Shown here: piece after piece, positions 1,749 through 22,450 of the stretch
Layout of the letters: each line of letters opens with the position of its first letter
How positions within the stretch are numbered: the first letter of the stretch is position 1
From: an uncultured Propionibacteriaceae bacterium
GTDB lineage: Bacteria; Actinomycetota; Actinomycetes; Propionibacteriales; Propionibacteriaceae
Direction: 5' to 3'
Assembly (NCBI GenBank): GCA_964397985.1
Contig: CAYNLD010000013.1
Coordinates: forward strand, 2,586 to 34,585
Length of the DNA stretch: 32,000 bases
Program-made: the position numbers and the translations under genes
Notes under the pieces: model-generated
What the model saw: only the letters and a program-made list of their open reading frames with translations
What the model was told of the DNA's origin: nothing
Databases searched by the model: none

Positions 1749-2354
1749 TCAGCCCAGCTCGGGCGCGGCATCCGCGATCAGGTCGCGCATGATCCGGATC
1801 TCGGTGAGCAGCCGCTCGCCGATCGCCGAATCCGTCGCGCCTTCGGCGTTCGACATGGCCGAGCTGACCGCGCCAAGGATCACCCCGAAGGCGACCTTCG
1901 CCCGGTGCTGGTCGCCGCTGCGCTGCTCGATCAGCCGGTAGAGCGGGCGCAGCCGGGTGATGGTCTGGGTCCAGAAGTCCATCGACAGCTCGGGGCGCTC
2001 GCGCAGCAGGGACTTCACCCGCGGGTAGTCGGACGGCAGGTTCACACTGCGGGCGACGAGCACGCAGGCATCCCCGATCAGGCTTCCGGACGCGGCGAGG
2101 AACCGGTCCCGCTCCGCGTCGCTGATGTCGGCGACGAGCAGGTCGAAGGCGGCAGCGACCTTGCTGGAGTAGTAGTTGAAGAACGTGCGCGGCGAGACGC
2201 CCACCTCTGCGCAGATCTCCTCCACGGTCACGTCGTTCGGCCCCCGCTCGGCGACCAGGCGCAGCGCGACCTCGTGGATCGCGTTGCGCGTGGCCGCCTT
2301 CTTGCGCTCCCGCAGCGAGGTGCAGGGCGGGTCGGTGGTGGCGTCGGCGGTCAT
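1749..2354 (-). CDS. TetR-family transcriptional regulator
   Basis: N-terminal HTH signature [51 protein letters not shown]. Its ATG overlaps the stop of the upstream MFS gene (ATGA at 2351-2354). Confidence 0.9.
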
Positions 2355-4921
2355 GCCAGGGCCTCCAGCGCGGCGCTCTCCTGCAGGTCCGACTTCTCCT
2401 GAAGGGCCGAGCGCGTCCGCAGCGGCGGGACCCGGTAGAAGCAGGCGATCACGAACGCCACCAGCATCACGCCGAACCCTACCCAGTAGATGGTCACGAC
2501 CGAGTCGTTGAAGCCGGTCATGAACGGCCTGGTCAGCCGCGGGTCCGCGCCGGTGAGGAACGACGTGTCGGAGGTGCTGTTGTCGGTGTTCACGTTGCTG
2601 TCGCCGGCGTCGCCGTTCTTGATCGTCTGAACCATCGTGGGTGCCAGCTCGTCCACCATCGCCCAGCGCTGCACCGGATCCGACCAGTCGACGACCAGCC
2701 GGCCGTCCTTGACGCTGAGGCTACGCTCCAGGGCCACGGATTGCAGTGCCTTGTCGTAGGCGTCGGGCAGTGCTTTGTTCACGGCCTTGTCGATGATCTT
2801 CTGCACCTTCGACAGCTTCTTCGCGCCACCGGCGAGCTTCTGGCCGCCGTCGGCCGCAGCAGCCGCTCCGGTCGGGATCGCGCTGCCCTTGCTGGCAGCG
2901 GTCTTCGCGCCGGTGGCGAGTTGCTGGGTGCCGGCCGCGAGCTTCTTCAGCGCGGTCACCAGGCTGGGGTTCTGGTCGGTGCCGTTCAGGATGCCGCTGG
3001 TGGCGTACACGTCGCCCTGCAGCGCGGCCATCGCGTCGTCGACCTTGCCCTTGTCCCCGTCCAGCTGGTCGCAGGCGGTCTGGTCGCCGGCCAGGCAGTC
3101 CTTCTGGTCGCCGGTCATCGTCTCGATCGCCGCGGAGAGCGAGCCGTAGGCGCCGGTCGCGCTCCGGGCGTAGGCGGCCGCGGCCGACTCACCCTTGCTG
3201 ACACCCTTGAGCCCGGTGGCGATCGCCTGCGCTCCATCGCCGATCTGGCTGACGCCGTCGACGAACGCGCCGGTGCCAGTGCTGAGTTGGGCCAGGCCGG
3301 AGCTCAGTGCCGAGATGCCGTCGCCGATCTTGCCCGTGCCCTGCGCCGCCTTCTTCGCCACCGCCGCGGTCACCTTCGCCTTCACGGCCGCCTTGACCTG
3401 CTTCTTCACCTCTTTGGTGGCATCGGCGAGATTGTCGTCCACGGTGCTCTTGACCTTGTCGGTGATCGGCGTCCACATCTTGTCCATGATCGCCGCGTTC
3501 GCCGGGTCGTTGGCGACCTTCGGGGTGAGGGCGGCGTCGAGGGCGTTCCAGGTCGTCCGCTCGTCCGTCATCGCGCTGGAGATGTTGGTCGGCAGGATGC
3601 TGAACAGCAGCGACAGCATGATGGCCGTGCCGAGGGTGCCACCGATCTGGCGGAAGAAGGTCGCCGAGCTGGTAGCGACGCCGATGTCCTTGGCCTCGGC
3701 CGAGGCCTGGACGGCCATGGTGAGGGTCTGCATCAGCTGGCCGAGACCGGCACCAATGATGAACATCGCGACCGCCATGTACCAGAACGGCTTGTCCAGG
3801 GTCATGAACGCAAGGATCAGGAAGCCGATCGCTGTGGTGGCGGTGCCGGTCTTGGGGAACACCGAGTACTTGCCGGTGCGCGCCACGAGCTGGCCGGTGC
3901 CGACCGAGGCGAGCATCACGCCGAACATCATCGGGAGGGTTGCGAAGCCCGACTGGGTGGGGCTGAACCCGAGAACGATCTGCAGGTACAGCGGGATGGT
4001 GAGCATGGCTCCGAACATCCCGAAGCCGATCAGGATGCTGAGCACGATGGCCGGGGAGAAGCCCTTCGCGTTGAACAGGCGCAACGGGATGATCGCGCTC
4101 GAGCCCATCGCCCGCTCCACGAGGATGAAGGCGAGCAGTCCGACCGCACCGATCGCGTAGCAGGTGATGGATGCGACCGAGGCCCAGCCCCACTCGCGTC
4201 CCTGCTCGGCAACCAGCAGCATCGGGGCGAGCGTGCCGACGACGAGGCCAGCCCCCCACCAGTCGATCCGCGGCTTGTCGTGCGGGATGTGCGGCAGGTG
4301 CAGGAAGAGGAACACGACAACCAGGGCGATGATGCCGACCGGGACGTTGACCAGGAAGACCCAGCGCCAGCCGGCGATGCCGAGGATCGTGTCGGTTCCG
4401 GCGAACAGACCTCCGACGAGCGGGCCGATCACGGACGCGATGCCGAAGGTGGCCAGGAAGAAGCCCTGGTACTTTGCGCGCTCCCGGGGAGCGAGCATGT
4501 CGCCGATGATGGCGAGCGGCAGCGACATCAGCCCGCCGGCGCCGAGGCCCTGGAAGGCGCGGAACGCCGCCAGCATCAGCATCGAGGTGGAGAAGCTGGA
4601 CAGGAACGAACCCGCGACAAAGATGCTGATGCTGATGATGAACAGCGGGCGGCGTCCGAACAGGTCGGACAGCTTGCCGTACAGCGGCGTGGTGACAGTC
4701 GCCGCGATCAGGTACGCGGTGGTCACCCAGGCCTGCTGGTCAAGGCCGTTCAGATCATCGCCGATGGTCCGGATCGCTGTGCCGACGATGGTTTGGTCCA
4801 GCGAGCTCAGGAACATGCCGGCCATCAGGCCGTACATGACGAACATGATCTGCCGATGGTTCATGATCGGGCTCTGGGTGATCTCTATCGGAGCCGTGCG
4901 CTCGACAGTGGCGGTTGCCAC
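2351..4921 (-). CDS. DHA2 (EmrB/QacA-type, 14-TMS) MFS efflux transporter with a large extracytoplasmic insert
   Basis: MFS motifs are present ([28 protein letters not shown]). Many hydrophobic helices are visible. I chose the GTG at 4919-4921 because GGAGGA lies 3 nt upstream. The track ORF extends to 5062, and an ATG at 4864 is an alternative start. Confidence 0.85.
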
Positions 4922-5110
4922 ATCTCCTCCTACAAACGAAAAGCGCTGCCCTTCCTGCAGCAGCGCATCTTTACGGTAGCGCAAGATTGCACGACTGCAA
5001 ACTTGCGCGAACGCAGTGGGCAAGGATGCTGATCCATCGAGCGGCCAGTCGGGATTGCCCACTCCCTATCGAGCCTCGCCCCGACGGCCCACCAAGGGCA
5101 TGATTGCGGC

Positions 5111-5482
5111 ATGACTCGCGTCCGCGTCGTTGCGGCGGCACTGCTTGCCCTCACCCTGCTGGCCTGCGGTTGCGCACCGAGCCCGACCGCGGAGGATGCG
5201 GGTGCGGTCACCTTCCGCACCCGCGCCGTGCCGATGGTCGGCGGCTTCTGCAGCTGGTTCGCGGAGGACCAGCCGGGCAGGCCGTGCGTCGAAGGCATGG
5301 ACCTGGTGTTCGCGGCGAAGCCGGAGATGCGCAGCGAGGGCAGCAGCGAGGCGCTCTACGAGGTCGTCGCCCAGGTGGACGTCTCGACCCAGACCCGCAG
5401 GAACACCGCCAACCCGCCGCAGTCGTCGCTGGTGACGATCTGGACGGTGACGAGGGTGATCTCGGTCACGCGAGTCTCCTGA
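5111..5482 (+). CDS. putative secreted lipoprotein
   Basis: Signal peptide with a lipobox (MTRVRVVAAALLALTLLAC-G). G/C is strong at third codon positions. I recognise no family. Confidence 0.55.
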   Translation: MTRVRVVAAALLALTLLACGCAPSPTAEDAGAVTFRTRAVPMVGGFCSWFAEDQPGRPCVEGMDLVFAAKPEMRSEGSSEALYEVVAQVDVSTQTRRNTANPPQSSLVTIWTVTRVISVTRVS

Positions 5483-5534
5483 CAGCCCCCGCAGAACTCC
5501 ACCGGCATGGCAGGCTGGGGGTAAGGAGAACACC

Positions 5535-6062
5535 ATGAACGCCGAATTCGACCTCTTCCCACCACCACGTCGCACGATCCACCACCGGCGCAACGTCGCC
5601 ACGGCCCTCTGCCTGGTGGGGGGCGCGGCCGCGGCAGGCTCGATCGCGTCCGATCCCGAAGATGACTGGTACACCGACCTGGACAAGCCCTCCTGGCAGC
5701 CGCCCGGCGAGGTGTTCCCCGTGGTGTGGAGCACCCTGTACGCAACCATCGCCGCGAACTCCACTGCGGTCCTGAACGAACTGGATCGGCAGGGCGACGC
5801 CGACGCCGTCGCGGAATTCCGCAGGGCGCTGGCCCGCAACATGGCCCTGAACGGCGCCTGGAGCTGGCTGTTCTTCCGCAACCACAACCTGCTGGCGTCG
5901 GCGATCGGCGCTGGCCTGCTCGCGGCCAACTCGGTCAGCCTCGCCCGCCGGGCCGCCCGGGTGGGCCGCCGGTTCGGCGTCGCAATGGCGCCCTACGCGG
6001 CGTGGACCTGCTTCGCAACCGCGCTCGCCACCGAGGTCTGGCGACGCAACCGGGACCGGTGA
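5535..6062 (+). CDS. tspO: TspO/MBR tryptophan-rich sensory protein
   Basis: PSWQPPGEVFPVVWSTLYATIA and NGAWSWLFF motifs. About five hydrophobic helices. A strong RBS (TAAGGAGAA) lies upstream of the ATG. Confidence 0.85.
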   Translation: MNAEFDLFPPPRRTIHHRRNVATALCLVGGAAAAGSIASDPEDDWYTDLDKPSWQPPGEVFPVVWSTLYATIAANSTAVLNELDRQGDADAVAEFRRALARNMALNGAWSWLFFRNHNLLASAIGAGLLAANSVSLARRAARVGRRFGVAMAPYAAWTCFATALATEVWRRNRDR

Positions 6063-6362
6063 CGGGCGCCCGTCGACGCGCCCGAAAGTGCATCCGGCGT
6101 CGAGCGATCCGGACCTGAGCCAGGGGGACCACACGCATCGGCCCACGCTGCCGCCCGTTGACCACCGGACCACCACGGCTGGGCCGCCGACGCGGCCCCG
6201 GCCCTGGCAGGGAGAGCCGATGGCGATCCGTTCCGGAACAGGGAGTACTTTTCGCGACCCGGGCCCACCCGGCAGGCGCCGAAGCGTCCGTTACTCTGCG
6301 GGCACCAGCCGGAGCCGGCGGCCGGCCCACCGGAGTGCCCCGCGACAAGCAAGGACGACACA

Positions 6363-8132
6363 TTGGCTGACAGAACGCTGAACCGGGACGCCGGCACGCT
6401 CGACCCCACCCTGTGGGGCCACCGGTGGGGCTTCCAGGACACGAGGCTGTTCCTGCACCCGGACGGCTCGGTGGAGATGACCGGCGAGCGGTACAACCTG
6501 TGCGGCTACCGGATGCCCTACCTCGTCCCCTTCATCAACAAGGAGCTGGGCGTCGAGATCGACTTCACCGCGAACCGTCCACTCACCGAGGCGCCGAGGG
6601 TCACGCCCGCCGCACGCAACGAGGCCTTCCTCGCCGCGCTGGCCGGCACGCTGCGCCCCGACCAGTTCAGGGCCGACGACCCGGAACGCCTCCTGCACAG
6701 CCACGGACAGACCACCACAGAGGAGGTCTCGCGGGTGCTGTACGACGACCTCGACCGCTGCGTCGACCTCGTCGTGTGGCCCGAATCGGACGCCGACTGC
6801 CAGGCGGTCGTCACCGCGGCGGACGTGCACGGCGTGTGCCTGATCCCGTACGGTGGCGGGACGAACGTGAGCAGCGCGCTGCTCGTGCCGGCGTCCGAGA
6901 CCCGGATGGTGGTTTCCGTCGACACCCGGCGGATGAACCGCGTCCTGCACGTCGACCGGGCGAACCTGACCGCCACCGTGCAGGCCGGGATCACGGGCGG
7001 ACGCCTGGAGCAGCTGCTCGCGACGGAGGGGCTCACCTGCGGCCACGAGCCGGACAGTTCCGAGCTGTCCACCCTCGGCGGCTGGATCGCCACCAACGCC
7101 AGCGGGATGAAGAAGAACCGCTACGGCAACATCGAGGACCTGGTGGAGAACGCGACGCTGGTCACGCCCGCCGGGGTGATCGAGCAGCAGTACTCCAGCC
7201 CGCGCCAGTCCCCCGGCATCCAGCTGCAGAAGGCGCTGTTCGGCAGCGAGGGCAACCTGGGCCTGGTCACGAAGGCCGTGGTCCACGTCCACCCGCTACC
7301 GGAGGTGAAGAAGTACGGCTCGGTGATCTTCGCGGACTGGCCCACCGGAGTGTCCTTCATGGAGGCGCTGAACCGGACCGGTGCCCGCCCGGCCAGCATC
7401 CGGCTGGTCGACAACCTGCAGTTCCGGCTGGGCCAGTCGCTGAAGGCCGCCCCGAGCGGGAGGGCGAAGGTACTGAAGAGCCGGGCCGAGGAAATCCTGG
7501 TCACGAAGATCAAGAAGTTCGACACGCACACGATGGTCGCAGCGACGATCGTCTACGAGGGCGCGGCGGCCGAGGTTGCCATGCAGGAGAAGGCGGTCGC
7601 GTCCACGGCGAGGCGCTTCGGCGGGCTGCAGGGGGGCTCGGGCAACGGCGAGCGAGGCTACATGCTGACCTACGCGATCGCCTACCTTCGCGACTTCCTG
7701 GCCGACTACTTCGTGATCGGCGAGACGTACGAGACGACGGTGCCGTGGGACCGGATCCACGACGTCTGCGCTGCGGTGGACCGGACGGCGAGGTCGGAGC
7801 ACGCCCGGCTGGGCTTCCCCGGCACGCCGTTCACCTCACCCCGGCTCACCCAGATGTACCACAGTGGCGTCTGCCTCTACTTCACCCACGGCCTGTACCA
7901 CCGCGGAGTGGAGGACGGCGATGCGAAGTTCGCCGAGATGGAGCGGAACATCCGCACCGCGATCATGGACGCCGGCGGCTCGATCTCGCACCACCACGGT
8001 GTCGGCAAGCTCCGCAAGCACGTCGTCGACCGCGTCGCGTCCACCGAATCGGTGGCCGCCGTGACCGCGCTCAAGCAAGCCGTCGACCCCCACAACGTCT
8101 TCGGCATCGCCAACAACATCTTCGGCTCCTAG
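6363..8132 (+). CDS. FAD-linked oxidase resembling alkyl-dihydroxyacetonephosphate synthase (AGPS)
   Basis: AGPS-type N-terminus (RWGFQDTRLFLHPDGSVEMTGERYNLCGYRMPYLVPF). FAD-binding PCMH region (VCLIPYGGGTNVSSA). C-terminal ISHHHGVGKLRK motif. The TTG start at 6363 is the only in-frame start before these motifs, so the start is less certain than the gene. Confidence 0.85.
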   Translation: MADRTLNRDAGTLDPTLWGHRWGFQDTRLFLHPDGSVEMTGERYNLCGYRMPYLVPFINKELGVEIDFTANRPLTEAPRVTPAARNEAFLAALAGTLRPDQFRADDPERLLHSHGQTTTEEVSRVLYDDLDRCVDLVVWPESDADCQAVVTAADVHGVCLIPYGGGTNVSSALLVPASETRMVVSVDTRRMNRVLHVDRANLTATVQAGITGGRLEQLLATEGLTCGHEPDSSELSTLGGWIATNASGMKKNRYGNIEDLVENATLVTPAGVIEQQYSSPRQSPGIQLQKALFGSEGNLGLVTKAVVHVHPLPEVKKYGSVIFADWPTGVSFMEALNRTGARPASIRLVDNLQFRLGQSLKAAPSGRAKVLKSRAEEILVTKIKKFDTHTMVAATIVYEGAAAEVAMQEKAVASTARRFGGLQGGSGNGERGYMLTYAIAYLRDFLADYFVIGETYETTVPWDRIHDVCAAVDRTARSEHARLGFPGTPFTSPRLTQMYHSGVCLYFTHGLYHRGVEDGDAKFAEMERNIRTAIMDAGGSISHHHGVGKLRKHVVDRVASTESVAAVTALKQAVDPHNVFGIANNIFGS

Positions 8133-8145
8133 CCATCGGCCGGGT

Positions 8146-8266
8146 GGCCGAAAAGGGGACGGTTCTCCTTTTCGTCCATGGCCGAGAAGGAGACGGTTCT
8201 CCTTCTCGTCCAGGCTGCTCTCCGTCGGTCAGGTGGACGATAACGAGAACCGTCCCCTTTCCGTCC
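8146..8266. repeat. three copies of a 33-bp hairpin-forming element (two tandem direct, one inverted)
   Basis: R1 8146-8178 is GGCCGAAAAGGGGACGGTTCTCCTTTTCGTCCA. R2 8180-8212 is GGCCGAGAAGGAGACGGTTCTCCTTCTCGTCCA (30/33 identical to R1). R3 8234-8266 is the reverse complement (29/33 identical to R1). R2 folds into a perfect 10-bp stem with a CGGT loop. Confidence 0.85.
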
Positions 8267-8445
8267 ACGCTGCTCCGCAGCCGACTCCCGCAGACAGGAG
8301 AAGCCCATCCGGGCAGCCAAGTACGTACTGTTTCCCCCCTTGTCGGACGCACGTTCGAGGCAACGAACCCGCTGGTAGCGTGCAGAACGCCCGCGGGCCG
8401 GACGTCTCCGGCCGATCCCCAGCAACGAGTTTCCCAGGAGGCCGC

Positions 8446-9276
8446 ATGACCCGCCAGAACCTCTCCCCGGAGGTGGTTCCTGCCGCGGGGTTCAGCGTCT
8501 CAGAGTTCGCCCGGACGGCGCACGGCAGCCACCGCGCGTCCCTCGACCTGGACGCCTATCGCGAGCACCCGCTCGACCCGGGCGCCGTCGCGATCCTCCA
8601 CCTGCTCGCCCGACTCGAACACGGCGCGCTGAGCTACCTGCGCAGCGTGCTTGTCACCCCGACCCACAAGGACGCCCGGGTCACCGCTTTCCTGGTCACC
8701 TGGGCCTACGAGAAGTACTGGGTGGCGGACGCCATCGAACAGGTCGTCGCGGCCCACCCGGCGCCACCGCCGGTCCGCGGCATCTCCCGGACGAAGCGGC
8801 TGCGGCTCGGGCTCGCGGAGCGGCTCGAGCCGATCACCGAATCGGTGGTCGCCAACCTGATCGGCGACGACCTGATCGCCACCCACACCGCGGCGGGCGC
8901 GATCGACGAGTGGATCACCCAGACCGGCTACGAACAGCTCCGCGACCGAACCCCCCACCCCGAACTTGCCGCCACGCTCGATCGCATCCTCGCGGTGAAG
9001 CGTCCCCACGCCGCCTTCTTCGCCGCGGATGCGGGCGATCGCCTCGCGGCCTCCCCGCGGGCGGTCGGGCTGGCCCGCCGACGGCTCTCAAGAACCACCT
9101 GGCCGCTCGGGTCGGCCACCGAGCCGCCCGCGTTGGTAGCCCGAATCCTCGACGGCCTGTTGCCGGCATCCGGCCTCGCCCTGATCGACGCCCGGGTCGA
9201 CGCGCTCCCCGGCCTCACCGGCCTGCACCTGGCCTCCACTGCGGCGCAGAGAGCCCGAAGGGCGGCGGCCCGGTGA
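8446..9276 (+). CDS. ferritin-like / acyl-ACP-desaturase-like protein with a degenerate metal site
   Basis: ATG at 8446 with AGGAGG 5 nt upstream. Clear paralog of the 11544-12356 product (YLRSVLVTPTHKDARVTAFLVTW versus YLRDLLVTPSHKERDVNAFMTMW). Two of the six diiron ligand positions are substituted. Confidence 0.7.
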   Translation: MTRQNLSPEVVPAAGFSVSEFARTAHGSHRASLDLDAYREHPLDPGAVAILHLLARLEHGALSYLRSVLVTPTHKDARVTAFLVTWAYEKYWVADAIEQVVAAHPAPPPVRGISRTKRLRLGLAERLEPITESVVANLIGDDLIATHTAAGAIDEWITQTGYEQLRDRTPHPELAATLDRILAVKRPHAAFFAADAGDRLAASPRAVGLARRRLSRTTWPLGSATEPPALVARILDGLLPASGLALIDARVDALPGLTGLHLASTAAQRARRAAAR

Positions 9277-11543
9277 GTGTCGACCTCGGAACCGCGAGGA
9301 TCCTGCTCACTGGTGGGACGGGTTTTGTCGGGCAGGCCATCCTCGAACGCCTGCTGAGCGGCCACCCCGGCACCACGGTCCTGGTGCTGGCGAGGGCGAA
9401 GGGCGAGCTGAGCGCCCAACAGCGGGTCGACTACCTGCGTGAGAAGGCGGTCTTCGCCCGCTGGCGCGAGGCCGTCGGCGAGGACGAGGCCCGGCGGCAG
9501 TTCGCCGAGCGGGTGCAGGTGGTCGAGGGTGATCTCGGCGCGCTCGGGCCGGAGCCGGAGCGACTCGACCTGGTCCTGCACAGTGCGTCCTCGGTGAACT
9601 TCGACGACCCGATCGACTCCGCGTTCGCGACCAACGTCACGGCTGTGGCGAGGCTCTATCAGGGTCTGCTGGACGCGGGCGCCGACCCCCACGTCGTCCA
9701 CATCTCCACCGCCTACGTGAACGCGGCGCGGAAGGGACCGGCAACGGAGGGCCCCGTCGATCATGAGGTGGACTGGCGGGCCGAGGAGGAAGCGGCACGG
9801 TCGGCCCGGACCCGGGTGGACGCGCGCTCGCGAGCCCCCGAAGAGCTGCGTCGGTTCCTGAGGGCCGCGCGGCAGGACGTCGGCAAGATCGGTCCGCAGG
9901 CGGTCGCAGAGGCCACCGAGGCGGCCCGGTGCGCCTGGGTGGACGCCGAACTGGTCGAGTACGGGCGCGCCCGCGCGCAGAGCCTGGGCTGGACCGACGC
10001 CTACACCCTGACCAAGGCGCTCGCGGAGCGGCTGGCGGAGGAGCTGTGGCTGGGTGGCGGGCACCGGCTCTCGATCGTGCGCCCTTCGATCATCGAGAGT
10101 GCGCTGCGGCACCCGTACCCGGGCTGGATCGACGGTTTCAAGGTGGCCGACCCCCTGATCGTGGCGTACGGCCGGGGTCACCTGCCGGAGTTCCCCGGGA
10201 TTCCCGACAGCGTGCTGGACGTGGTGCCGGTGGACTTCGTGGTGAATGCGGCGCTGGCCGCTGCGGCGACCGCTGCGCCGCGTGACCGGGCGCGCTACTT
10301 CCACGTGGTCTCCGGCACGTCGAACCCGCTGCCGATGCACCAGATGTACGAGAACATCCGGGCGTACTACACGGCGCACCCGATCCCGGGCGCGGACAGG
10401 CCCACCAGCGTGCCGGCGTGGCAGTTCCCCGGAGGGATCCGGTTCGAGGCGAGCCTGAGCCGCAAGGAGGTCGGGGCGACGCTCGGCGCCTCCGTGTTGT
10501 CCCGGCTGCCGACGACGCCGAAAGCTCGCGACCTGGCGGATTCACTGGCGTCGGCGCAGAAGAAGCTGCGGGCACTGCACCGGTTCTCCGAGCTGTACCA
10601 GGCCTACGTCCAGGCCGAGGTGGTCTTCGACGACGCGGCCACGCGGGCGCTGGACGCCGAGACCTCGGCCGGACCGCAGGACGATGCGGGGTTCGATGTG
10701 ACCGCCATCGACTGGGCGCACTACCTGCAGGAGATCCACCTGCCCTCGATCGCGGCACTCCCCCGCCGGCCGTCGCACGGGTCGCGGCCCGAGCGGACGC
10801 AGGCACCGCTGTCCCCGGCCCCGGACGTGCTGGCGGTGTTCGACCTGGAGGGCACGGTGCTGCACGCGAACCTGATCCAGCAGTACCTGTGGCTGCGGGA
10901 CGCGGAGCGGGACGTGACGGCAGTGCCACGGGAGTTGACCAAGATCCTGGCGCTGCTCCCCCGCTACCTCGCTGCCGAGCGGCGGGACCGCAGCGAGTTC
11001 ATCCGCAGCTTCCTGCGGCTACACAAGGGCATGTCTGTTGACGACATAAAGAGATACATCGACGGACGCGCGGGACGCAAGCTGCGCGCGCACCTGTTGA
11101 CGGACGCACTGGCGCGGGTCGAGGAGCATCGCGCGGCCGGCCACCACACCGTGCTGGTGACCGGTGGGGTGGACCTGCTGGCCGATGTGGCGGCGCCATG
11201 GTTCGACCGAGTTGTGGCGAGCGGACTGCACTCCCGCGACGGGGTGCTGACCGGCTACCTGGCGGCACCGCCAGTGGTGGGCGAGGCGCGGGCGGCGTGG
11301 TTGCGCGGCTATGCGGCCTCCGGAGGCTTCGACCTGGCGAAGTCCTACGGCTACGGCGACAGCCAGGCCGACACCTCCTGGCTGCGGCTGCTCGGCCACC
11401 CTGTGGCGGTGAACCCCGACCAGAGGCTCTACGGCTATGCCCGCACCCACCACTGGGATGTCGTCGAGTGGCGACAGACGGGCGCCCGCCCGCCAGTCCG
11501 ACCCGTCCAAACCCCCGCGACCGCAGCCAAGGAGGGCCGATAG
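9273..11543 (+). CDS. fatty acyl-CoA/ACP reductase (NAD_binding_4-type SDR) fused to a HAD-IB hydrolase domain
   Basis: The GTG at 9273 overlaps the upstream stop (GTGA). N-terminal LLTGGTGFVGQ Rossmann motif, ISTAYV and YTLTKALAE (YxxxK). The C-terminal third, from about 10824, has HAD motifs VFDLEGTV and GYGDSQAD. The track ORF start at 8910 lies inside the upstream gene and was not used. Confidence 0.85.
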   Translation: MSVDLGTARILLTGGTGFVGQAILERLLSGHPGTTVLVLARAKGELSAQQRVDYLREKAVFARWREAVGEDEARRQFAERVQVVEGDLGALGPEPERLDLVLHSASSVNFDDPIDSAFATNVTAVARLYQGLLDAGADPHVVHISTAYVNAARKGPATEGPVDHEVDWRAEEEAARSARTRVDARSRAPEELRRFLRAARQDVGKIGPQAVAEATEAARCAWVDAELVEYGRARAQSLGWTDAYTLTKALAERLAEELWLGGGHRLSIVRPSIIESALRHPYPGWIDGFKVADPLIVAYGRGHLPEFPGIPDSVLDVVPVDFVVNAALAAAATAAPRDRARYFHVVSGTSNPLPMHQMYENIRAYYTAHPIPGADRPTSVPAWQFPGGIRFEASLSRKEVGATLGASVLSRLPTTPKARDLADSLASAQKKLRALHRFSELYQAYVQAEVVFDDAATRALDAETSAGPQDDAGFDVTAIDWAHYLQEIHLPSIAALPRRPSHGSRPERTQAPLSPAPDVLAVFDLEGTVLHANLIQQYLWLRDAERDVTAVPRELTKILALLPRYLAAERRDRSEFIRSFLRLHKGMSVDDIKRYIDGRAGRKLRAHLLTDALARVEEHRAAGHHTVLVTGGVDLLADVAAPWFDRVVASGLHSRDGVLTGYLAAPPVVGEARAAWLRGYAASGGFDLAKSYGYGDSQADTSWLRLLGHPVAVNPDQRLYGYARTHHWDVVEWRQTGARPPVRPVQTPATAAKEGR

Positions 11544-12356
11544 ATGGCATTCGACGTGGACTCCTACGCCGAGACCTCTGCGGGAGTGACCTGGCAGGAC
11601 CTGGACTTCGACAGCTTCGAGAGCCAGCCGCTGTCGCAGGACACACTGCACACGCTGCGCTACATGTGCGCCGTGGAGTACCACACGATCTGCTACCTGC
11701 GGGACCTCCTGGTGACCCCGTCCCACAAGGAGCGGGATGTGAACGCCTTCATGACGATGTGGAACCGCGAGGAGTACTGGCACGGCGAGGCGCTGGCCGC
11801 CGTGCTGGCCCGGCACGGCATCACCGTGGGCTACGACGAGCTGAAGGCTGCGCGGGTGAAGCTGGAGTGGCGCGACAAGCTGGCGCCGCTGAAGCAGTCG
11901 GTGCTGGGCAACATCGTCGGTGACGACTTCGTCGCTGTGCACATGAGCTGGGGCGCAGCGAACGAGTGGAGCGCCACCGCGGCCTACCGGCGGCTGGCGC
12001 AGCTCGAGCAGCACCCCGCGCTCTCGCCGCTGCTGCAGCGGATCGGCCAGCAGGAAACCCGACACACGGCGTTCTACGCGACCCAGGCGCGCAAGCGGCT
12101 GGAGACCTCGAAGATGGCGCGGGTGCTGACCCGGCTCGTGCTGGCGAAGGCCTGGCGCCCGGTGGGCTCCTCGATCTCCGAGCCGGAGGATCTCGACCAC
12201 GTGATGCGACACCTGTTCAGCGGCCACGACGGCCTGGCGGAGATCCGGCGAATCGACGCGAATATCGCGAAGCTGCCGGGCATGGAGGGCCTGACGATCT
12301 TCGAGACCGCTGTCCGTCCCCACGACATGGACTGGCCCGCTCCCGACCCCGCCTGA
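11544..12356 (+). CDS. soluble diiron-carboxylate protein, acyl-ACP-desaturase-like
   Basis: The ATG immediately follows the upstream TAG, with AAGGAGGG 7 nt upstream. The full E / ExxH / E / ExxH ligand set is present (AVEYH, WNREEYWHGE, AANEWS, QQETRH). WNREEYWHGE resembles the WTAEENRHG box of soluble desaturases. Confidence 0.8.
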   Translation: MAFDVDSYAETSAGVTWQDLDFDSFESQPLSQDTLHTLRYMCAVEYHTICYLRDLLVTPSHKERDVNAFMTMWNREEYWHGEALAAVLARHGITVGYDELKAARVKLEWRDKLAPLKQSVLGNIVGDDFVAVHMSWGAANEWSATAAYRRLAQLEQHPALSPLLQRIGQQETRHTAFYATQARKRLETSKMARVLTRLVLAKAWRPVGSSISEPEDLDHVMRHLFSGHDGLAEIRRIDANIAKLPGMEGLTIFETAVRPHDMDWPAPDPA

Positions 12357-12537
12357 GCCACCGCCACCGTCAAGGTCCGTGCCGCGACGACACTGTTTCC
12401 GGAATAGGTCGTCCCGACACGTAACGCCGGCCGCCTCTGCAGCGGTTTAGCAATTGAGGTCGTTTCTCGCCGTCTCGCAGACCCCGGCTTCGGCGACCCC
12501 AGGCTCACTTTCCAGAGCGGCCATAAGGAGCACCCCC

Positions 12538-12954
12538 GTGCGAAACCGAAAGGACAACAGAGGGGCGGTGGCGGTCGAGTTCGCCCTCGTGGTGCCCGTG
12601 TTGATGATCCTGATGCTGGGCATCGTGGAGTTCAGCTACGCCTTCCTCATGCAGGCCTCGGTGGCGAACGCCGCCCGGATCGGTGCGCGCAACTACGCCA
12701 TCAACTACTCCATCGCGATCAAGACCGGGCAGTCGCAGGCGTCGCTCCAGCAGGCCGCGATCCAGGTCGCCACGGACACCACACCGGTCCCAGCCAACGT
12801 GGTCTCCGGCAGCTTTTCCGCGGACTGCGCCCCGCAGCAGCAGACGACGCTCACCCTGCTCTACCGCTACCGCTCCTTGACCGGGTGGTTCGACGGAATC
12901 CTTGGCAGTTCGGTCAACCTGAAGGGGATTGGGAGCATGCAATGCGGAGGCTGA
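12538..12954 (+). CDS. tadE: TadE-like Flp pilus assembly / pseudopilin protein
   Basis: N-terminus NRGAVAVEFALVVPVLMILMLGIVEF is the TadE-type hydrophobic segment. The GTG at 12538 has AAGGAG 7 nt upstream. Confidence 0.8.
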   Translation: MRNRKDNRGAVAVEFALVVPVLMILMLGIVEFSYAFLMQASVANAARIGARNYAINYSIAIKTGQSQASLQQAAIQVATDTTPVPANVVSGSFSADCAPQQQTTLTLLYRYRSLTGWFDGILGSSVNLKGIGSMQCGG

Positions 12955-13871
12955 TCCGACCGGCGTCCCGCCAACGCGGCGCAACGGCGGTGATCGTCGC
13001 GATCTCAATGATGGCGATGCTCGGCTTCGCGGCCGTCGCCATCGACCTCGGCGGCGCCTACGCCGAACACCAGCAGTTGCAGAACGGGGCCGATGCCGGG
13101 GCGCTCGCGATCGCCCAGTCCTGCGCGCTCGGCGATTGCGTCGACGGCTCGGACAAGTACGCGAAGGCGAACAAGCTGGACGGCCAGGCCACCGGTAAGG
13201 TCGTCGGCACGATCACCTCCCCGGTCACAGTCGAGACGAGCAGCGTCCGGAAGAACTGGTTCGGCGCCGTCATCGGGATCCCGACGAGCACCCTCACCGC
13301 ACGAGCCACCGCCGAGTGGGGCTGGCCGTCCGGCGGCGCGACGCTGCCGTTGACCTTCTCCTGGTGCGCCTTCCGCGAGGCGACAGGCGGCTGGGACGTC
13401 GCCCTGGGGGACAAGCTCCCCGACACAGAGACGACCATCCACCTCATCGAGAAGACCTGCACTCCCCCGGCGCACAACGAGGTCGCCGGCGGGTTCGGGT
13501 GGCTCACCGGGATCAACTGCTCCGCCACCGTGTACGCCGACAACTGGGTGCTTTCCGACCCGGGCAACGACGGCTCGACCTCGTGCAAGGACTTCGACTG
13601 GACCGCGCTCCTCAGCAAGCCGGTGCTGGTGCCGATCTTCGAGGAGACCACCGGTTCGGGCAGCAACGCCATGTACAAGATCAAGGGCCTCGCCGCCTTC
13701 GAGATCAGCGGGTACTGCTTCGCACAGGACGCGCAGTGGAACGTCACCAAGTGTCCGGCCGACAAGCAGATCAAGGGCCACTTCACGGACTACGTCGACC
13801 TCAGCGGCGACTACACCATCGACGCCAACGCCACCCACTTCGGCGTGGCCACGGTCAAGCTGTCTGCCTGA
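12942..13871 (+). CDS. TadG-like (Tad N-terminal domain) pilus assembly protein
   Basis: QRGATAVIVAISMMAMLGFAAVAIDLGGAYAEHQQLQNGADAGALA matches the TadG-type N-terminal domain. Its start overlaps the end of tadE by 13 nt. Confidence 0.75.
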   Translation: MRRLIRPASRQRGATAVIVAISMMAMLGFAAVAIDLGGAYAEHQQLQNGADAGALAIAQSCALGDCVDGSDKYAKANKLDGQATGKVVGTITSPVTVETSSVRKNWFGAVIGIPTSTLTARATAEWGWPSGGATLPLTFSWCAFREATGGWDVALGDKLPDTETTIHLIEKTCTPPAHNEVAGGFGWLTGINCSATVYADNWVLSDPGNDGSTSCKDFDWTALLSKPVLVPIFEETTGSGSNAMYKIKGLAAFEISGYCFAQDAQWNVTKCPADKQIKGHFTDYVDLSGDYTIDANATHFGVATVKLSA

Positions 13872-13939
13872 GCGCCGGGCGCGCTGGTGACCCGGGGGCG
13901 ATGGCGGATGGACGGGCCGACCCGAGCTATCGTCGTGGC

Positions 13940-14800
13940 ATGCAGACCTTCCACCTGGGTGAGTTCACGGTGCGCCGGATGGGATTCGGTGCGATGCAGC
14001 TGCCGGGACGCGGAGTGATGGGCCCGCCGCGTGACCACGACGAGGCGATCCGGGTGCTCCGGCGCGCAGTCGAGCTCGGCGTGAACCACATCGACACTGC
14101 ACAGTTCTACGGCCCGGACGTGGCGAACGAGTTGATCCGGGAGGCCCTGCACCCCTACCCGGACGACCTCGTGCTGGTCACCAAGGTGGGGTCGCTGAGG
14201 GACGCAGAGGGGAACTGGAACCCTGCCCAGCGCCCGGAGCAGCTCCGCGCGGCCGTTGAGGACAACCTGCGCACCCTCGGCATCGAGCGGATCGGCGCGG
14301 TGAACCTGCGGCTGATGGACCACGAGCCGGACGACCCCGCGCAGCGGGTGCCACTGGAGGACAAGCTCGCCGAACTGGTGGCGTTGCGCGAGGAGGGCAA
14401 GCTCGCCGGAGTCGGCATCTCGACGGCCAGCGCGCCGCAGGTGCAACAGGCGATCGAGCAGGCACGCATCGTCTGCGTCCAGAACGCCTACAGCCTGCTC
14501 GACCAGAGCGACGTCGCGGTGCTGGACCTGTGTCAGGCGCAGGGCGTCGCCTACGTCCCGTACTTCCCGCTCGGCTCGGCGTTCCCGCACCTGCCGAAAG
14601 TGAGCGACGACCCCGCCGTCCGGGCAGTCGCCGCCCGGCTGGGCGCGACACCGGCGCAGGTGGGACTCGCCTGGCTACTCGCGCACCGGGAGAACATTCT
14701 GTTGATCCCGGGGACGTCGAGTGTTGCCCACCTTGAGCAGAACCTGGCGGCGACCGAGGTGACGCTCAGCGCCGACGACCTCGCGGAGCTGGACCGCTAG
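13940..14800 (+). CDS. aldo/keto reductase
   Basis: MGFGAMQLPG...AIRVLRRAVELGVNHIDTAQFYG...LVTKVG... are AKR signatures. The start was chosen at the ATG giving MQTFHLGEF. An upstream in-frame ATG (MADGRADPS...) about 13 codons earlier is an alternative. Confidence 0.9.
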   Translation: MQTFHLGEFTVRRMGFGAMQLPGRGVMGPPRDHDEAIRVLRRAVELGVNHIDTAQFYGPDVANELIREALHPYPDDLVLVTKVGSLRDAEGNWNPAQRPEQLRAAVEDNLRTLGIERIGAVNLRLMDHEPDDPAQRVPLEDKLAELVALREEGKLAGVGISTASAPQVQQAIEQARIVCVQNAYSLLDQSDVAVLDLCQAQGVAYVPYFPLGSAFPHLPKVSDDPAVRAVAARLGATPAQVGLAWLLAHRENILLIPGTSSVAHLEQNLAATEVTLSADDLAELDR

Positions 14801-15394: not shown

Positions 15395-15676
15395 TCACCA
15401 CCGCCGCACGCGCTGGCGGTGATTGCTCACGTTGTTGCCGTCGATCGCGGTGCGCTGGGTGCCACGCACCTCGTCCACCTTCTGGTCGGTGCCGGTGATC
15501 GGCTTCGACTCGATCAGCGTCTCCCGCTCGAAAGAGTGCGACCTGCCGGTGTTGCGGTAGAACTGGAACAACCCCCAGTAGACAGCGACCGCCCCCGCCG
15601 GGCCGAGCAGCAGGATCCACGGGGTGTCGCCGCTCGCGGCGAGCGGGATGAGCAGCCCGATCAGCAGCGTCGTCAT
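15395..15676 (-). CDS. small membrane protein (two predicted TM helices plus a polar tail)
   Basis: MTTLLIGLLIPLAASGDTPWILLLGPAGAVAVYWGLFQF followed by a charged tail. Its ATG overlaps the upstream stop (ATGA at 15673-15676). Third-position G/C is high. Confidence 0.6.
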   Translation of the reverse strand: MTTLLIGLLIPLAASGDTPWILLLGPAGAVAVYWGLFQFYRNTGRSHSFERETLIESKPITGTDQKVDEVRGTQRTAIDGNNVSNHRQRVRRW

Positions 15677-16917
15677 GACATCACCGCCAGGAGCCACAAC
15701 GCGACGCCCTCCAGCACGGTCCCGGCGGCCAGCGCGGCCAGAATCAGCCGTCCCTGCGAGACCGGGACGCTGCCCATCGTCTCGCCCGTCCGTCCGTTCA
15801 CCGCGATGTAGTGCACCATCGCGTGGCCGTTCTCCTCGTAGTAGTAGGAGTACAGCCACACCGGGAGGTACATCGACACCCAGCGCGTTCCGTGGACGAC
15901 GAGGTGCTCGTTCTCCCAGCGCACGCCGCGGTTGTACCGGGACACCGAACCCTCGACCTGGGAGCGCGCGATCGAGAGCAGCTGGTCCTCCAGGACGGGC
16001 TGAACCTGGGCCACGTCCTGGTCCCTGCGTTCGGAGGTGAAGCCGACGAGGTAGTTGGCGTTCCACTGCACCGCGTTCTTGGTGTCGAACGGCAGGATCG
16101 TGTTGATCACGTTGTTCGTGTTGACGAAAGCGTCCATGTTCGCGCGCTCTGCGGACGACTCGATGGTCAGGTCGTCGACGGCGAAATCGACATGCCGGGC
16201 GACCTGGTACACGTCCGCGTCGTAGTAGGTCTCCTCCTGATCGCCGTGCGTGCGGGTGTAGCGCCTGGTCTCGACCTCGCCGAAGCCCTGCACGTCGGCG
16301 CTGGCGTTGCCGTCGACGACCATGTAGGGCAGGTAGACGCCGACCACGTTCTCCGGGGCGAAGTCCCGGCGGAACTTCCGGTGGGCGAACAACCTGCGGG
16401 CGCCGGCGAACTCCCGGATGTGCGCCAGAGCCCGGTCACGGGTGATGCCGAAGGGCAGGACCGCGTCGGGCACAGCGCCGTTGGGCACCTGCTCGTTGAT
16501 GGTGAGGATGTGCCTGCACCAGTGACAGCGGGACGACATCGCCTCGGCGGTGTTCACCACGACCTCCGAACCGCACCCCGGGCACTTCAGGGTGATCACC
16601 CCGGACACCTCCGGCGAGATGTCCGTCGCACCCGAGGCGACGACCGTCCCCGTGAGGTCCTGCAAGGCGCCCTCCCCGGCCACCACCGGTTCGATCCTCG
16701 CCTCGGACCACTCGTAGCGGCAGAACAGGCAGACCAGCTTGCCTGCGGAGACGCGCAGCTGGATCTCGGTCGAGCCGCACTTCGGGCACCGGTTGAGGCC
16801 GTCGTGGAGGGCCTGGTTCGCGGTGTCCACGGTCTGCGGACCGGGCGCCCCGGGTGGCACGGCGCCGGGTTGCCCCGGGCCGGTCACCGCCTCGGGCGTG
16901 GCCTGGGAGTCGGTCAT
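15673..16917 (-). CDS. double zinc-ribbon protein with a C-terminal TM anchor (YdjG / TFIIB-type zinc-ribbon-like)
   Basis: Two CxxC...CxxC units are present (CPKCGSTEIQLRVSAGKLVCLFC; CPGCGSEVVVNTAEAMSSRCHWC). There is a C-terminal hydrophobic helix (LILAALAAGTVLEGVALWLLAV). It starts 9 nt after the SPFH gene stop. Confidence 0.8.
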   Translation of the reverse strand: MTDSQATPEAVTGPGQPGAVPPGAPGPQTVDTANQALHDGLNRCPKCGSTEIQLRVSAGKLVCLFCRYEWSEARIEPVVAGEGALQDLTGTVVASGATDISPEVSGVITLKCPGCGSEVVVNTAEAMSSRCHWCRHILTINEQVPNGAVPDAVLPFGITRDRALAHIREFAGARRLFAHRKFRRDFAPENVVGVYLPYMVVDGNASADVQGFGEVETRRYTRTHGDQEETYYDADVYQVARHVDFAVDDLTIESSAERANMDAFVNTNNVINTILPFDTKNAVQWNANYLVGFTSERRDQDVAQVQPVLEDQLLSIARSQVEGSVSRYNRGVRWENEHLVVHGTRWVSMYLPVWLYSYYYEENGHAMVHYIAVNGRTGETMGSVPVSQGRLILAALAAGTVLEGVALWLLAVMS

Positions 16918-16926
16918 CTCGGAATC

Positions 16927-18105
16927 CTAGAGACCGAGTGCCTTGGCCTTCGCCGCGTCATAGTCCGCCTGCGTGATCAGCCCCGCGTCCAGCATCTCCT
17001 TGAACTTCGCCAGCTTGGCCACCGGATCCTCGGCCGCAGGCTGCGGGGTGGCCGGCGCGGCGGGAGCCTGCGGAGCGGGCGCCTGCACGGGCTGCTGGAG
17101 CGCGCCGATGCCGGTCGTGCCCGCCGCCATGCCCATGCCGACCAGCCCTCCGGGGCCGGCGTTCTCACCCGCGGCCTCGAAGCCGGCCGCGACCGAGGCC
17201 TGCAGGTTCGAGTTGCCCCGTCCGCCGGAGAGGGCGTCAGCACGCTGCACATTGCGCAGCAGCTCGCGGGTCATCTCGTCGTACTCGATCGAGATGATCG
17301 CCGTCGCAACGATCGCGAGGCCGCGCTCCGCGCGCCACTGGTAGTTCTCCTCGACCGCGGCGGAAAGGCTCCGCGCGAAGCCGTCGGAGTCCTGCTGGAT
17401 CTTGGTGATCCGCCCCTTCGCCGGGTCGTTGGTGTACATCGAGAAGGCCGGCGCAAGGGAGGCCACCACCTCGTTGAACAGCTGGGCGGCGGCGTCGTTC
17501 TCGATGTCGGTGAAGTCGAAGACCCGACCCGGTTCGAGGTAAGTCGCGGGCACGAACGACTTGATGAACAGGATCGGGTCGACGATCTTCAGGGTGTAGG
17601 TGCCCCGAGTGACCGCACCGACCTGCGCGTTCATGTAGGCGTCGTCCCAGTAGATCTCGGACTGGGTGCCAAAGCGGTTGTTGGGCAGCTCCTTGAGCGT
17701 GACGAAGTAGGCGCGCTGCTGGGTGCCGGGGCGTCCGCCGAACTTGAACCTCTCCCACGAGGTGGTGACGGTGGAACTCACGAGGTCGTTGCCCGCGAAG
17801 ATCGACTGGGAGTCCTGGGCCTCGGAGTTCCACTCGTAGGCGCCCGCCTGCGCGGCGAAGCCGGTGATGGCGCCGTCCTGCATCAGGACCAGGCCGTAGC
17901 CCTCGGGAACGAGGATGCGGCTGCCGTTGGTGATCACACCCTCGGAGCCGTGCGTGTTCGAGCCGCGCCCGGCGTTCTGCCCCTGCGGAACCGCCGCGAA
18001 CAGCGCTGCGGTCGGGGCCAGACCGCCCGGGACGGTGTAGAAGTCCTTCCACTGATCGGCAAGCGTTCCGCCGATTGCTCCGATCGCTGCCTGAATGAGT
18101 CCCAT
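16927..18105 (-). CDS. SPFH/Band-7-like protein (YdjI / 'virion core protein'-like) with a C-terminal SHOCT domain
   Basis: N-terminus MGLIQAAIGAIGGTLADQWKDFY and the central region are typical of the YdjI-like SPFH family. The C-terminal KLAKFKEMLDAGLITQADYDAAKAKALGL is a SHOCT motif. I chose the ATG at 18105 (AGGAG 6 nt upstream) over the TTG at 18108. Confidence 0.85.
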   Translation of the reverse strand: MGLIQAAIGAIGGTLADQWKDFYTVPGGLAPTAALFAAVPQGQNAGRGSNTHGSEGVITNGSRILVPEGYGLVLMQDGAITGFAAQAGAYEWNSEAQDSQSIFAGNDLVSSTVTTSWERFKFGGRPGTQQRAYFVTLKELPNNRFGTQSEIYWDDAYMNAQVGAVTRGTYTLKIVDPILFIKSFVPATYLEPGRVFDFTDIENDAAAQLFNEVVASLAPAFSMYTNDPAKGRITKIQQDSDGFARSLSAAVEENYQWRAERGLAIVATAIISIEYDEMTRELLRNVQRADALSGGRGNSNLQASVAAGFEAAGENAGPGGLVGMGMAAGTTGIGALQQPVQAPAPQAPAAPATPQPAAEDPVAKLAKFKEMLDAGLITQADYDAAKAKALGL

Positions 18106-18363
18106 CAAAGGCTCCTTCGTGTGTCGGGTCCCTGCCTGCCGCCGTTGGCAGGTCCGGGTAGGGGCCGTCTCCCCTGCACGAGCCTCACCCTACTGATCGG
18201 GCGGTGCGCAGGGCGACCACCCGGGGCTCGAACAACACCAACTGGTCGCCAGGACGTTCCGGTGTCGCCCGCCCGTCCCCGTCCCCGGGGCAATTCCCGC
18301 ACTGAGCGGGCCCGTGCCAACCGGATTCGAACCGCCCTATCGTGGGCCCAGCCGGGAGGTGGG

Positions 18364-22295: not shown

Positions 22296-22450
22296 TCGAC
22301 CCCCCTTCGAACGTCTCGGGTCATGCTAGGCCTCGCCGCGGGCCCGGCGATGGTGGAATTTGTCGTGATCCGCGCTCGCCGGGCCAGCCCGGATGCGGAG
22401 TTGTGCCCGTTGTTGATGACGCACGGTCCCGTGCGGATCGAGAATGCGGG

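Follow-up and report, generated by a model that had tools for sequence, protein, structure and literature searches.

Can a handful of adjacent bacterial genes encode a counterpart of the ether-lipid route of animal peroxisomes? The question is raised by a 32-kb stretch of DNA from an uncultured member of the Propionibacteriaceae (contig CAYNLD010000013.1; approximately 70% G+C; "the window" below means this whole stretch), in which genes were called from codon-position G+C statistics together with the listing of open reading frames (ORFs). As a preliminary description of this DNA had reported, positions 6363 to 12356 hold four genes that all lie on the + strand:

6363-8132, + strand: gene A, predicted alkylglycerone-phosphate synthase (AGPS), 589 amino acids, TTG start
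8446-9276, + strand: gene B, ferritin-like and paralogous to D, metal site degenerate, 276 amino acids
9273-11543, + strand: gene C, predicted fatty acyl reductase (FAR) fused to a HAD-IB domain, 756 amino acids
9285-10754, + strand: reductase domain of C (residues 5-494), matching PDB entry 7eoz
10830-11468, + strand: HAD-IB domain of C (residues 520-732), matching PF12710
11544-12356, + strand: gene D, di-iron carboxylate protein, ferritin-like, family unclassified, 270 amino acids, candidate lipid desaturase/oxygenase

The animal peroxisomal route proceeds through GNPAT, FAR1/2, AGPS, an alkyl-dihydroxyacetone phosphate (alkyl-DHAP) reductase, a phosphatase step, and PEDS1 (PMC9702350). Judged by homology and gene neighborhood, it is quite likely that the genes in the window serve ether-lipid biosynthesis through FAR and AGPS, and we lean toward reading all four as a compact, oxygen-dependent, eukaryote-type ether-lipid route that includes an oxidation of the lipid chain by D and B. 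The joint presence of AGPS and FAR had already been taken to suggest ether-lipid synthesis, and that suggestion gains strength from the gene set found in related genomes. For the latter, one genome per species was scanned for relatives of D, which turned up in at least 581 actinomycete species; 80 of the loci were retrieved and are given as L numbers where they need to be told apart.

Gene A is, by its sequence, a true AGPS of an animal-like lineage (AGPS1) with a predicted exchange activity. Pfam identified FAD_binding_4 (122.5 bits) and FAD-oxidase_C (116.5 bits) domains, and a phmmer search against PDB matched A to guinea-pig AGPS (4bby) with E=4e-146 and 491 bits. The alignment runs from residue 20 to 584 of A and from residue 94 of the guinea-pig chain to its C terminus, thereby covering the AGPS-specific N-terminal domain that precedes the FAD domain, with 43% identity over 562 aligned positions; Dictyostelium AGPS was also matched (E=9e-81). 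By comparison, glycolate oxidase and LctD reached 88 and 81 bits in the PDB search, and the NCBIfam GlcD model gave 138 bits against a cutoff of 568. With 491 bits for AGPS versus at most 88 bits for glycolate/lactate oxidases, the earlier naming of this flavoenzyme as an AGPS stands, and an identity as GlcD or D-lactate dehydrogenase is ruled out. The motifs RWGFQD, TGERY, and SHHHGVGK that had been quoted for A were all found. Moreover, Arg347, Tyr506, and His543-545 align with guinea-pig Arg419, Tyr578, and His615-617, the mutant PDB entries 4bca (Y578F) and 4bc7 (R419H) marking catalytic positions of the guinea-pig enzyme. Orthologs 80-93% identical to A occupy the same position in L001, L002, L004-L007, and L022, and the L007 ortholog, whose N terminus reads MADKSLNRD, backs the TTG start. 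More distant AGPS1 relatives, 57-60% identical to A, occur in Chloroflexi and Eremiobacterota.

The N-terminal part of C has the features of an alcohol-forming FAR of the plant/animal type, for which the family predicts a four-electron reduction. NAD_binding_4 was detected at 163 bits (Pfam), residues 5-494 align end to end with 7eoz, a "fatty acyl-CoA reductase" (E=2e-48), and the TGxTGFxG and YxxxK motifs, which read TGGTGFVG and YTLTK in C as had been quoted, are kept across 70 aligned orthologs. The C-terminal Sterile/FAR_C family (PF03015) scored only 25.5 bits on C, under its cutoff of 35.4, and is precomputed for most homologs. The reductase described beforehand as FAR-type is thus placed in the alcohol-forming FAR family by Pfam and by the 7eoz alignment. 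The HAD part matched PF12710 at 95.5 bits (cutoff 27), TIGR01490 at 95.6 bits, slightly below the cutoff of 98.3, and, within PDB, the HAD-IB protein 3fvv and SerB phosphatases. Its motif I reads F-D-x-E-G-T (D524, E526, and T528 each conserved in 98% or more of 70 sequences), departing from DxDxT in that Glu526 replaces the second Asp; motif IV is GDSxxD across the orthologs (GDSQAD). The DxExT motif is also found in enolase-phosphatase E1 and is thus compatible with HAD activity. Whether this domain is a lipid-phosphate phosphatase we consider evenly balanced. All 120 C homologs among the matches listed carry the FAR-HAD fusion, under names that are only generic; such a union of FAR and phosphatase would be hard to understand unless the alcohol is destined for a pathway of phosphorylated lipids.

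The ferritin-like pair, D and B, had been described as two di-iron proteins, which holds for D and fails for B. The six di-iron ligands of D (E45, E77, H80, E141, E171, and H174) are invariant in 81/81 sequences. No Pfam or NCBIfam family matched D above threshold, with Rubrerythrin, COQ7, and FA_desaturase_2 appearing below it; the score to the acyl-acyl carrier protein (acyl-ACP) desaturase family PF03405 was 13.4 bits for D and 18.5 bits for the Plantibacter ortholog, compared to a cutoff of 22.7, and databases list D as a "ferritin-like domain-containing protein". The AlphaFold model of D is helical (pLDDT 84), and its best Foldseek matches were DesA2 of M. tuberculosis (1za0), plant acyl-ACP desaturases, and R2-like ligand-binding oxidases (R2lox), with TM scores of ~0.55. 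The best of these had E=1.7e-3, and R2lox and the R2 subunit of ribonucleotide reductase scored almost equal to the desaturases. The likeness is one of fold only; DesA2 was the sole real match to D in PDB at the level of sequence. Neither protein contains a typical membrane-helix segment (maximum 19-residue Kyte-Doolittle mean, 1.68 for B and 0.88 for D). Together with the ferritin-like fold, this rules out membership of B or D in PEDS1/CarF, CarF being a membrane histidine-box desaturase.

B shares 33% identity with D (E=1e-47) and matched no Pfam or NCBIfam family. In 64/64 orthologs, E77 is replaced by K/R, H80 by I/V/L/M, and E171 by K/R/Q (K in 61). Because three ligands are lost in every ortholog, B cannot hold a di-iron site; these replacements rule it out as a second active di-iron enzyme and, read from the sequences, make it a conserved and catalytically dead paralog (pseudo-enzyme) of D. 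The D/B superfamily comprises 1181 clusters at 50% identity, and both the ligand-complete and the B-like degenerate types recur among its full-length representatives. Where C is absent or located elsewhere (L057 and L068), B directly adjoins D.

The coding regions of B, C, and D are tightly joined, much as the preliminary description had it: the GTG start of C shares bases with the TGA stop of B in a GTGA overlap (9273-9276), and the ATG of D (11544-11546) abuts the TAG of C (11541-11543), with AAGGAGGG immediately upstream. A is separated from B by a non-coding spacer of 313 nt (8133-8445) and is therefore not translationally coupled to B, C, and D. A start of B at GTG 8233, the first GTG of its ORF, was rejected; ATG 8446 is preceded by AGGAGG.

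Co-occurrence was counted in those 63 loci whose sequence extends 7 kb or more upstream of D: B was found in 63/63, C in 60/63, and AGPS in 54/63. The nearest relative of the window is a metagenome-assembled genome (MAG) labelled Actinobacteria HGW-Actinobacteria-5 (protein identity, 91-95%), followed by Propionicimonas MAGs and then by Microbacteriaceae, Streptomyces, Kocuria, and Ruaniaceae. AGPS1, the type in the window, lies directly upstream and on the same strand in the window, L001, L002, L004-L007, and L022. A second lineage, AGPS2, is found in 48/63 loci, its carriers being Microbacteriaceae, Streptomyces, Kocuria, and Ruaniaceae; it is ~32% identical to A and still clearly an AGPS (E=7e-116 to Dictyostelium AGPS, SHHHAVG loop kept). 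All 48 of the 48 AGPS2 loci encode a small PlsC-type acyltransferase (PF01553; PDB 5kym, E=5e-17), and an adh_short-type short-chain dehydrogenase (SDR) stands beside AGPS in 57/80 loci, four AGPS1 loci among them. In the commonest arrangement, SDR, acyltransferase, and AGPS2 are read in that order, divergently from B-C-D. Some Streptomyces have B-C-D followed by the acyltransferase and AGPS2 on the same strand; L004, L005, L006, and L022 have SDR-AGPS1-B-C-D; the window, L002, and L007 have AGPS1-B-C-D; and L077 and L068 contain a rearranged form of the set. Flanking genes are otherwise unrelated between lineages.

The block is thus conserved across related actinomycete loci, and, because the same set is met in dozens of genomes, its four-gene arrangement is far beyond chance. 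Its persistence through shuffling and through the swap of one AGPS lineage for another strongly indicates a shared pathway, and the independent joining of two AGPS lineages to the B-C-D genes argues strongly that the FAR feeds the AGPS. The window holds a reduced version of the gene set, without acyltransferase or dehydrogenase. The preliminary description was correct that an acyltransferase is missing: none is encoded in the whole 32 kb (tblastn), nor was an SDR of the cluster type found in the window version of the set. What that description lacked is that relatives carry both a PlsC-type acyltransferase and an SDR within the set.

One locus outside this pattern, L082 (5183-10591), has an AGPS1 62% identical to A in a FAR-less context, located between genes for a GlpABC-like glycerol-3-phosphate dehydrogenase (GlpA/B/C-like anaerobic type), which precede it, and a translationally coupled SDR. 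As the Glp genes (a DHAP source) and the SDR flank AGPS1, this context is in keeping with a reaction on DHAP and a subsequent keto reduction. Clustering of all ORFs from the 80 loci further showed AGPS2 to be neighbored by a TetR regulator in 29 Microbacteriaceae loci, joined in the Plantibacter/Microbacterium group by a YegS/Rv2252-type lipid kinase; examples of this neighborhood are at L039 1527-3328 and L025 1257-1883. The setting presumably resembles the Rv2250c-Rv2252 region of M. tuberculosis. Aldo/keto reductase (AKR), Na/H exchanger, TrkA-C, second SDR, ABC, and phosphotransferase system (PTS) genes were considered as conserved partners and proved to be lineage specific only. A second cluster-type SDR, sharing 63% identity with the L006 SDR that served as query, lies downstream of D in L004 (11794-12498). 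The L039 ORF at 5078-6250 was rejected as a 390-residue acyltransferase, since its upstream part is a separate SDR gene in another frame.

Put in order, these genes suggest the following pathway. The N-terminal reductase of C would, as expected from its family, convert a fatty acyl thioester to a fatty alcohol. A would then exchange the acyl group of 1-acyl-DHAP for this alcohol to give 1-O-alkyl-DHAP, the step that forms the ether bond; this role is assigned to A because of its 43% identity to the mammalian enzyme and its conserved catalytic residues. In most relatives, the clustered SDR, a candidate alkyl-DHAP reductase, would reduce the keto group of 1-alkyl-DHAP, and acyl-DHAP formation, sn-2 acylation, or both would fall to the PlsC-type acyltransferase, while in the window the acyltransferase and keto-reduction steps would have to be encoded elsewhere. 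The HAD-IB domain fused to the FAR would most likely dephosphorylate alkyl(-acyl)-glycerol phosphate or alkyl-DHAP, leaving an alkylglycerol backbone from which glycolipids or neutral lipids could be built. D, in complex with its dead paralog B, would oxidize the alkyl chain with O2, the leading guess being 1'-desaturation of the alkyl ether to a vinyl ether (plasmalogen). One gene of the window might stand in for the missing reductase:

13901-14800, + strand: aldo/keto reductase (Pfam Aldo_ket_red, E=1e-51), 1.5 kb downstream of D

It is possible that this AKR acts as the alkyl-DHAP reductase, and the association is a weak one: an AKR is near the cluster in only 9 loci, including L001, the Plantibacter group, and L068.

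That D and its dead paralog B form a soluble di-iron plasmanyl 1'-desaturase is a tentative proposal, and just as tentative is its corollary that they would represent a third type of this enzyme, unrelated to PEDS1/CarF and to PlsA/PlsR. Vinyl-ether formation is favored for D/B because the nearest folds are lipid desaturases, because no other gene in the cluster is a candidate for that step of the animal pathway, because the cluster carriers are aerobes, and because aerobic Microbacteriaceae (Subtercola and Agreia) and Kineococcus yield dimethylacetals, a plasmalogen signature for which no responsible genes were named (PMC5945732, PMC7472656). Several points weigh against it and against the larger pathway. 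D resembles desaturases at the fold level alone (TM ~0.55, Foldseek E>1e-3, no Pfam family), and hydroxylation, epoxidation, or another oxidation by D is equally compatible with the data. The dimethylacetals could instead be explained by the PlsA/PlsR homologs reported from some Actinobacteria (PMC9702350), and no link between the cluster and dimethylacetal-bearing genera was found in the Kineococcus supplement or in the Subtercola, Antarctic-lipid, and Actinobacteria taxonomy papers. In Myxococcus, little of the ether lipid stems from Agps (bioRxiv 10.64898/2026.06.23.733905). In the window itself, the source of acyl-DHAP and the keto reduction have to be assumed, as acyltransferase and dehydrogenase are both missing, and the Glu in place of the second Asp in HAD motif I makes it less certain that the domain follows the usual phosphatase chemistry. 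No AGPS lies within 7-10 kb of B-C-D in five Propionicimonas-like loci, and the B-D pair stands alone in three loci, such that the function of B-C-D may not strictly need AGPS.

Part of this evidence is shared with other readings of the cluster. The main rival, which we rate as somewhat unlikely, is a pathway to saturated alkyl-glycerol (plasmanyl or neutral ether) lipids with no vinyl ether, in which D/B would desaturate or hydroxylate elsewhere, be it an acyl substrate before reduction, the alkyl chain at mid-length, or a different lipid altogether. It draws on the same FAR and AGPS evidence as the plasmalogen proposal, and the nearest folds of D, acyl-ACP desaturases acting on acyl chains and R2lox binding a fatty acid, suit it well, as do the B-D pairs without AGPS or C nearby; the synteny of D/B with AGPS in 54/63 loci and the lack of an acyl carrier protein supplied by the cluster speak against it. 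The five loci that have B-C-D without AGPS would also suit a self-standing B-C-D module for fatty alcohols, wax esters, or hydrocarbons with AGPS as an unrelated neighbor. In its hydrocarbon form, the reductase would free an aldehyde for D to deformylate, yielding an alkane, as in the cyanobacterial pair of acyl-ACP reductase (AAR) and aldehyde-deformylating oxygenase (ADO); D is, like ADO, a ferritin-like di-iron protein, and one ADO-active Kitasatospora protein appeared at Foldseek rank 25 for D. Such a module is nonetheless improbable: C is placed among the alcohol-forming FARs, probably with their C-terminal domain, and not in the AAR family, D has no sequence match to ADO and ranks desaturases and R2lox higher, the fused phosphatase has no part in alkane or wax synthesis, and two unrelated AGPS lineages, the acyltransferase, and the SDR co-localize with B-C-D in most genomes. 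The alkane alternative raised in the preliminary description falls with it, given that C is not of the AAR family and D no relative of ADO by sequence. Least probable of all, to the point of being remote, is that the cluster degrades or remodels environmental ether lipids, with D cleaving the ether in the manner of alkylglycerol monooxygenase. Di-iron oxygenases can hydroxylate the carbon adjoining an ether oxygen, and the HAD phosphatase and the lipid kinase of some loci could serve salvage, but FAR is reductive and biosynthetic, AGPS makes rather than cleaves ether bonds, and neither an aldehyde dehydrogenase nor an uptake system is conserved with the gene set. We retain the oxygen-dependent ether-lipid route as the preferred reading of the four genes.

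The spacer between A and B contains two elements that may bear on the expression of the cluster:

8145-8267, no strand assigned: three copies of a 34-nt self-complementary element, two direct and one inverted, from a repeat search
8324-8405, + strand: conserved non-coding stretch of 82 nt upstream of B, candidate promoter or 5' leader of B-C-D

The copies of the 34-nt element (TGGCCGAGAAGGAGACGGTTCTCCTTCTCGTCCA) fill 8145-8267; its core motif has 3 matches in the spacer versus 0.54 expected for the whole window. Two copies are present in the nearest relative, L001, and no exact copy was found in the other 81 loci. Rfam gave no match to the element or anywhere else in the window. The array may be an operator array, a hairpin terminator, or an insulator. 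In the spacer alignment with L001, 8324-8405 is nearly invariant while 8268-8323 is scrambled, and it is because scrambled and indel-bearing parts adjoin this nearly invariant 82-nt stretch that 8133-8445 is read as non-coding. The stretch, which holds a near-palindrome (CGTTCG...CGAACC), could serve B-C-D as promoter, operator, or leader. A sigma-70-like consensus was not seen upstream of B, and scans for promoter and terminator consensus sequences were uninformative.

Other parts of the window have contents of their own:

5111-5482, + strand: 123-residue protein without a family, upstream of AGPS
5535-6062, + strand: TspO/MBR family membrane protein, directly upstream of AGPS
15673-16917, - strand: zinc-ribbon protein of a possible defense-like island
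16927-18108, - strand: SPFH/SHOCT protein of the same possible island
about 18202-20715, + strand: RyR-domain protein, next to the TIR genes
20691-22295, - strand: TIR-GDPD fusion, divergent from the TIR-WD40 gene
22403-25336, + strand: TIR-WD40 protein of the same possible island

The TspO/MBR and 123-residue genes were not found in related loci and are probably unrelated to the cluster. Directly after D are TadE-like and Tad/TadG-like pilus-assembly genes (12454-13871), the first of which also has a homolog in L001. Upstream, an agmatine deiminase-type (PAD_porph) gene and a carbon-nitrogen hydrolase gene lie in tandem at 1-1725 and probably represent an agmatine-to-putrescine pathway; they are followed by a TetR regulator (1749-2354) co-oriented with an unusually long major facilitator superfamily (MFS) transporter (2351-5062; 903 residues), to which transporter models match only over about the first 520 residues. 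The TspO, TadE/Tad, and MFS/TetR genes were rejected as cluster members, as they are not conserved in relatives. The region 15673-25336 is possibly a defense-like island, and a PADLOC scan of the region of the TIR genes returned weak ThsB-like matches only.

Were D and B indeed such a desaturase, the set of SDR-acyltransferase-AGPS and B-FAR-HAD-D would be the missing aerobic plasmalogen pathway of Actinobacteria and would mirror the entire peroxisomal ether-lipid route in bacteria, with its complete animal-type sequence of DHAP and fatty-alcohol steps. It would also explain the dimethylacetals that serve as chemotaxonomic markers of Subtercola, Agreia, Kineococcus, and related genera. The gene set offers testable genetic candidates for the function of actinobacterial AGPS homologs, for the source of the plasmalogen-type dimethylacetals of actinobacteria that are strictly aerobic, and for vinyl-ether formation by a soluble di-iron enzyme, and cultivable carriers suited to knockouts are available in Plantibacter, Rhodoglobus, and Streptomyces, such as Plantibacter flavus, Rhodoglobus aureus, and Streptomyces edwardsiae. 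In the full-text literature, we found no function for the actinobacterial AGPS homologs Rv3107c and Rv2251 and no description of the cluster or of a ferritin-like plasmalogen enzyme.

The bacterial ether-lipid routes named in reviews are only those of Myxococcus Elb/CarF/Agps and of PlsA/PlsR/Ger (PMC9702350, PMC13159169, bioRxiv 10.64898/2026.06.23.733905), and plasmalogens are held to be absent from aerobic bacteria except for myxobacteria (PMC9702350). The anaerobic PlsA/PlsR (and Ger) route concerns the lipid class proposed here, alk-1'-enyl and alkyl ethers, and occurs in some Actinobacteria as well (PMC9702350, PMC13159169), yet it reduces an existing ester bond, is oxygen-sensitive, and operates without DHAP, fatty alcohol, or AGPS; no PlsA/PlsR genes were found among the window genes scanned with Pfam. 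Myxococcus xanthus (Agps MXAN_1676, elbB-E, CarF) has a bacterial AGPS homolog tied to ether lipids and an aerobic, O2-dependent formation of the vinyl ether, as the present cluster would (bioRxiv 10.64898/2026.06.23.733905; PMC13159169). In contrast, the main route of Myxococcus is the multidomain ElbD, with Agps on a separate and independent pathway (PMC13159169), whereas the AGPS described here is clustered with FAR-HAD and ferritin-like proteins; the two systems are set apart by their descriptions.

Compared to the soluble acyl-ACP desaturases (PF03405), DesA2, and R2lox, D has the same four-helix ferritin-like core and the same E/ExxH/E/ExxH ligands, but it falls below the Pfam threshold (13-18 bits versus 22.7; TM ~0.55), is shorter than the plant enzymes, is always paired with a ligand-deficient paralog, and is encoded in a cluster without an acyl carrier protein gene. 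As in cyanobacterial AAR/ADO, a reductase adjoins a ferritin-like di-iron protein; unlike in that system, C and D are outside the AAR and ADO families and have partners (AGPS, acyltransferase, and SDR) irrelevant to alkanes. The gene set resembles the animal peroxisomal route (GNPAT, FAR1/2, AGPS, DHRS7B/PexRAP, and PEDS1/TMEM189) in several respects: A shares the catalytic Arg, Tyr, and HHH loop at 43% identity, the reductase of C aligns end to end with the plant/animal-type FAR, the acyltransferase of relatives shares the PF01553 superfamily with GNPAT, and their SDR is of the enzyme class of alkyl-DHAP reductase. The bacterial version differs from the animal one in that its genes are clustered, its FAR is fused to HAD-IB, the acyltransferase of relatives is small and PlsC-like, and a soluble ferritin-like protein with a dead paralog stands where the animal route has the PEDS1-like membrane desaturase. 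AGPS/FAR-dependent ether-lipid synthesis is of a kind already known, while the fusion of FAR to a HAD (phosphatase) domain and the enzyme/pseudo-enzyme pair of D and B are new elements, unprecedented in the literature searched.

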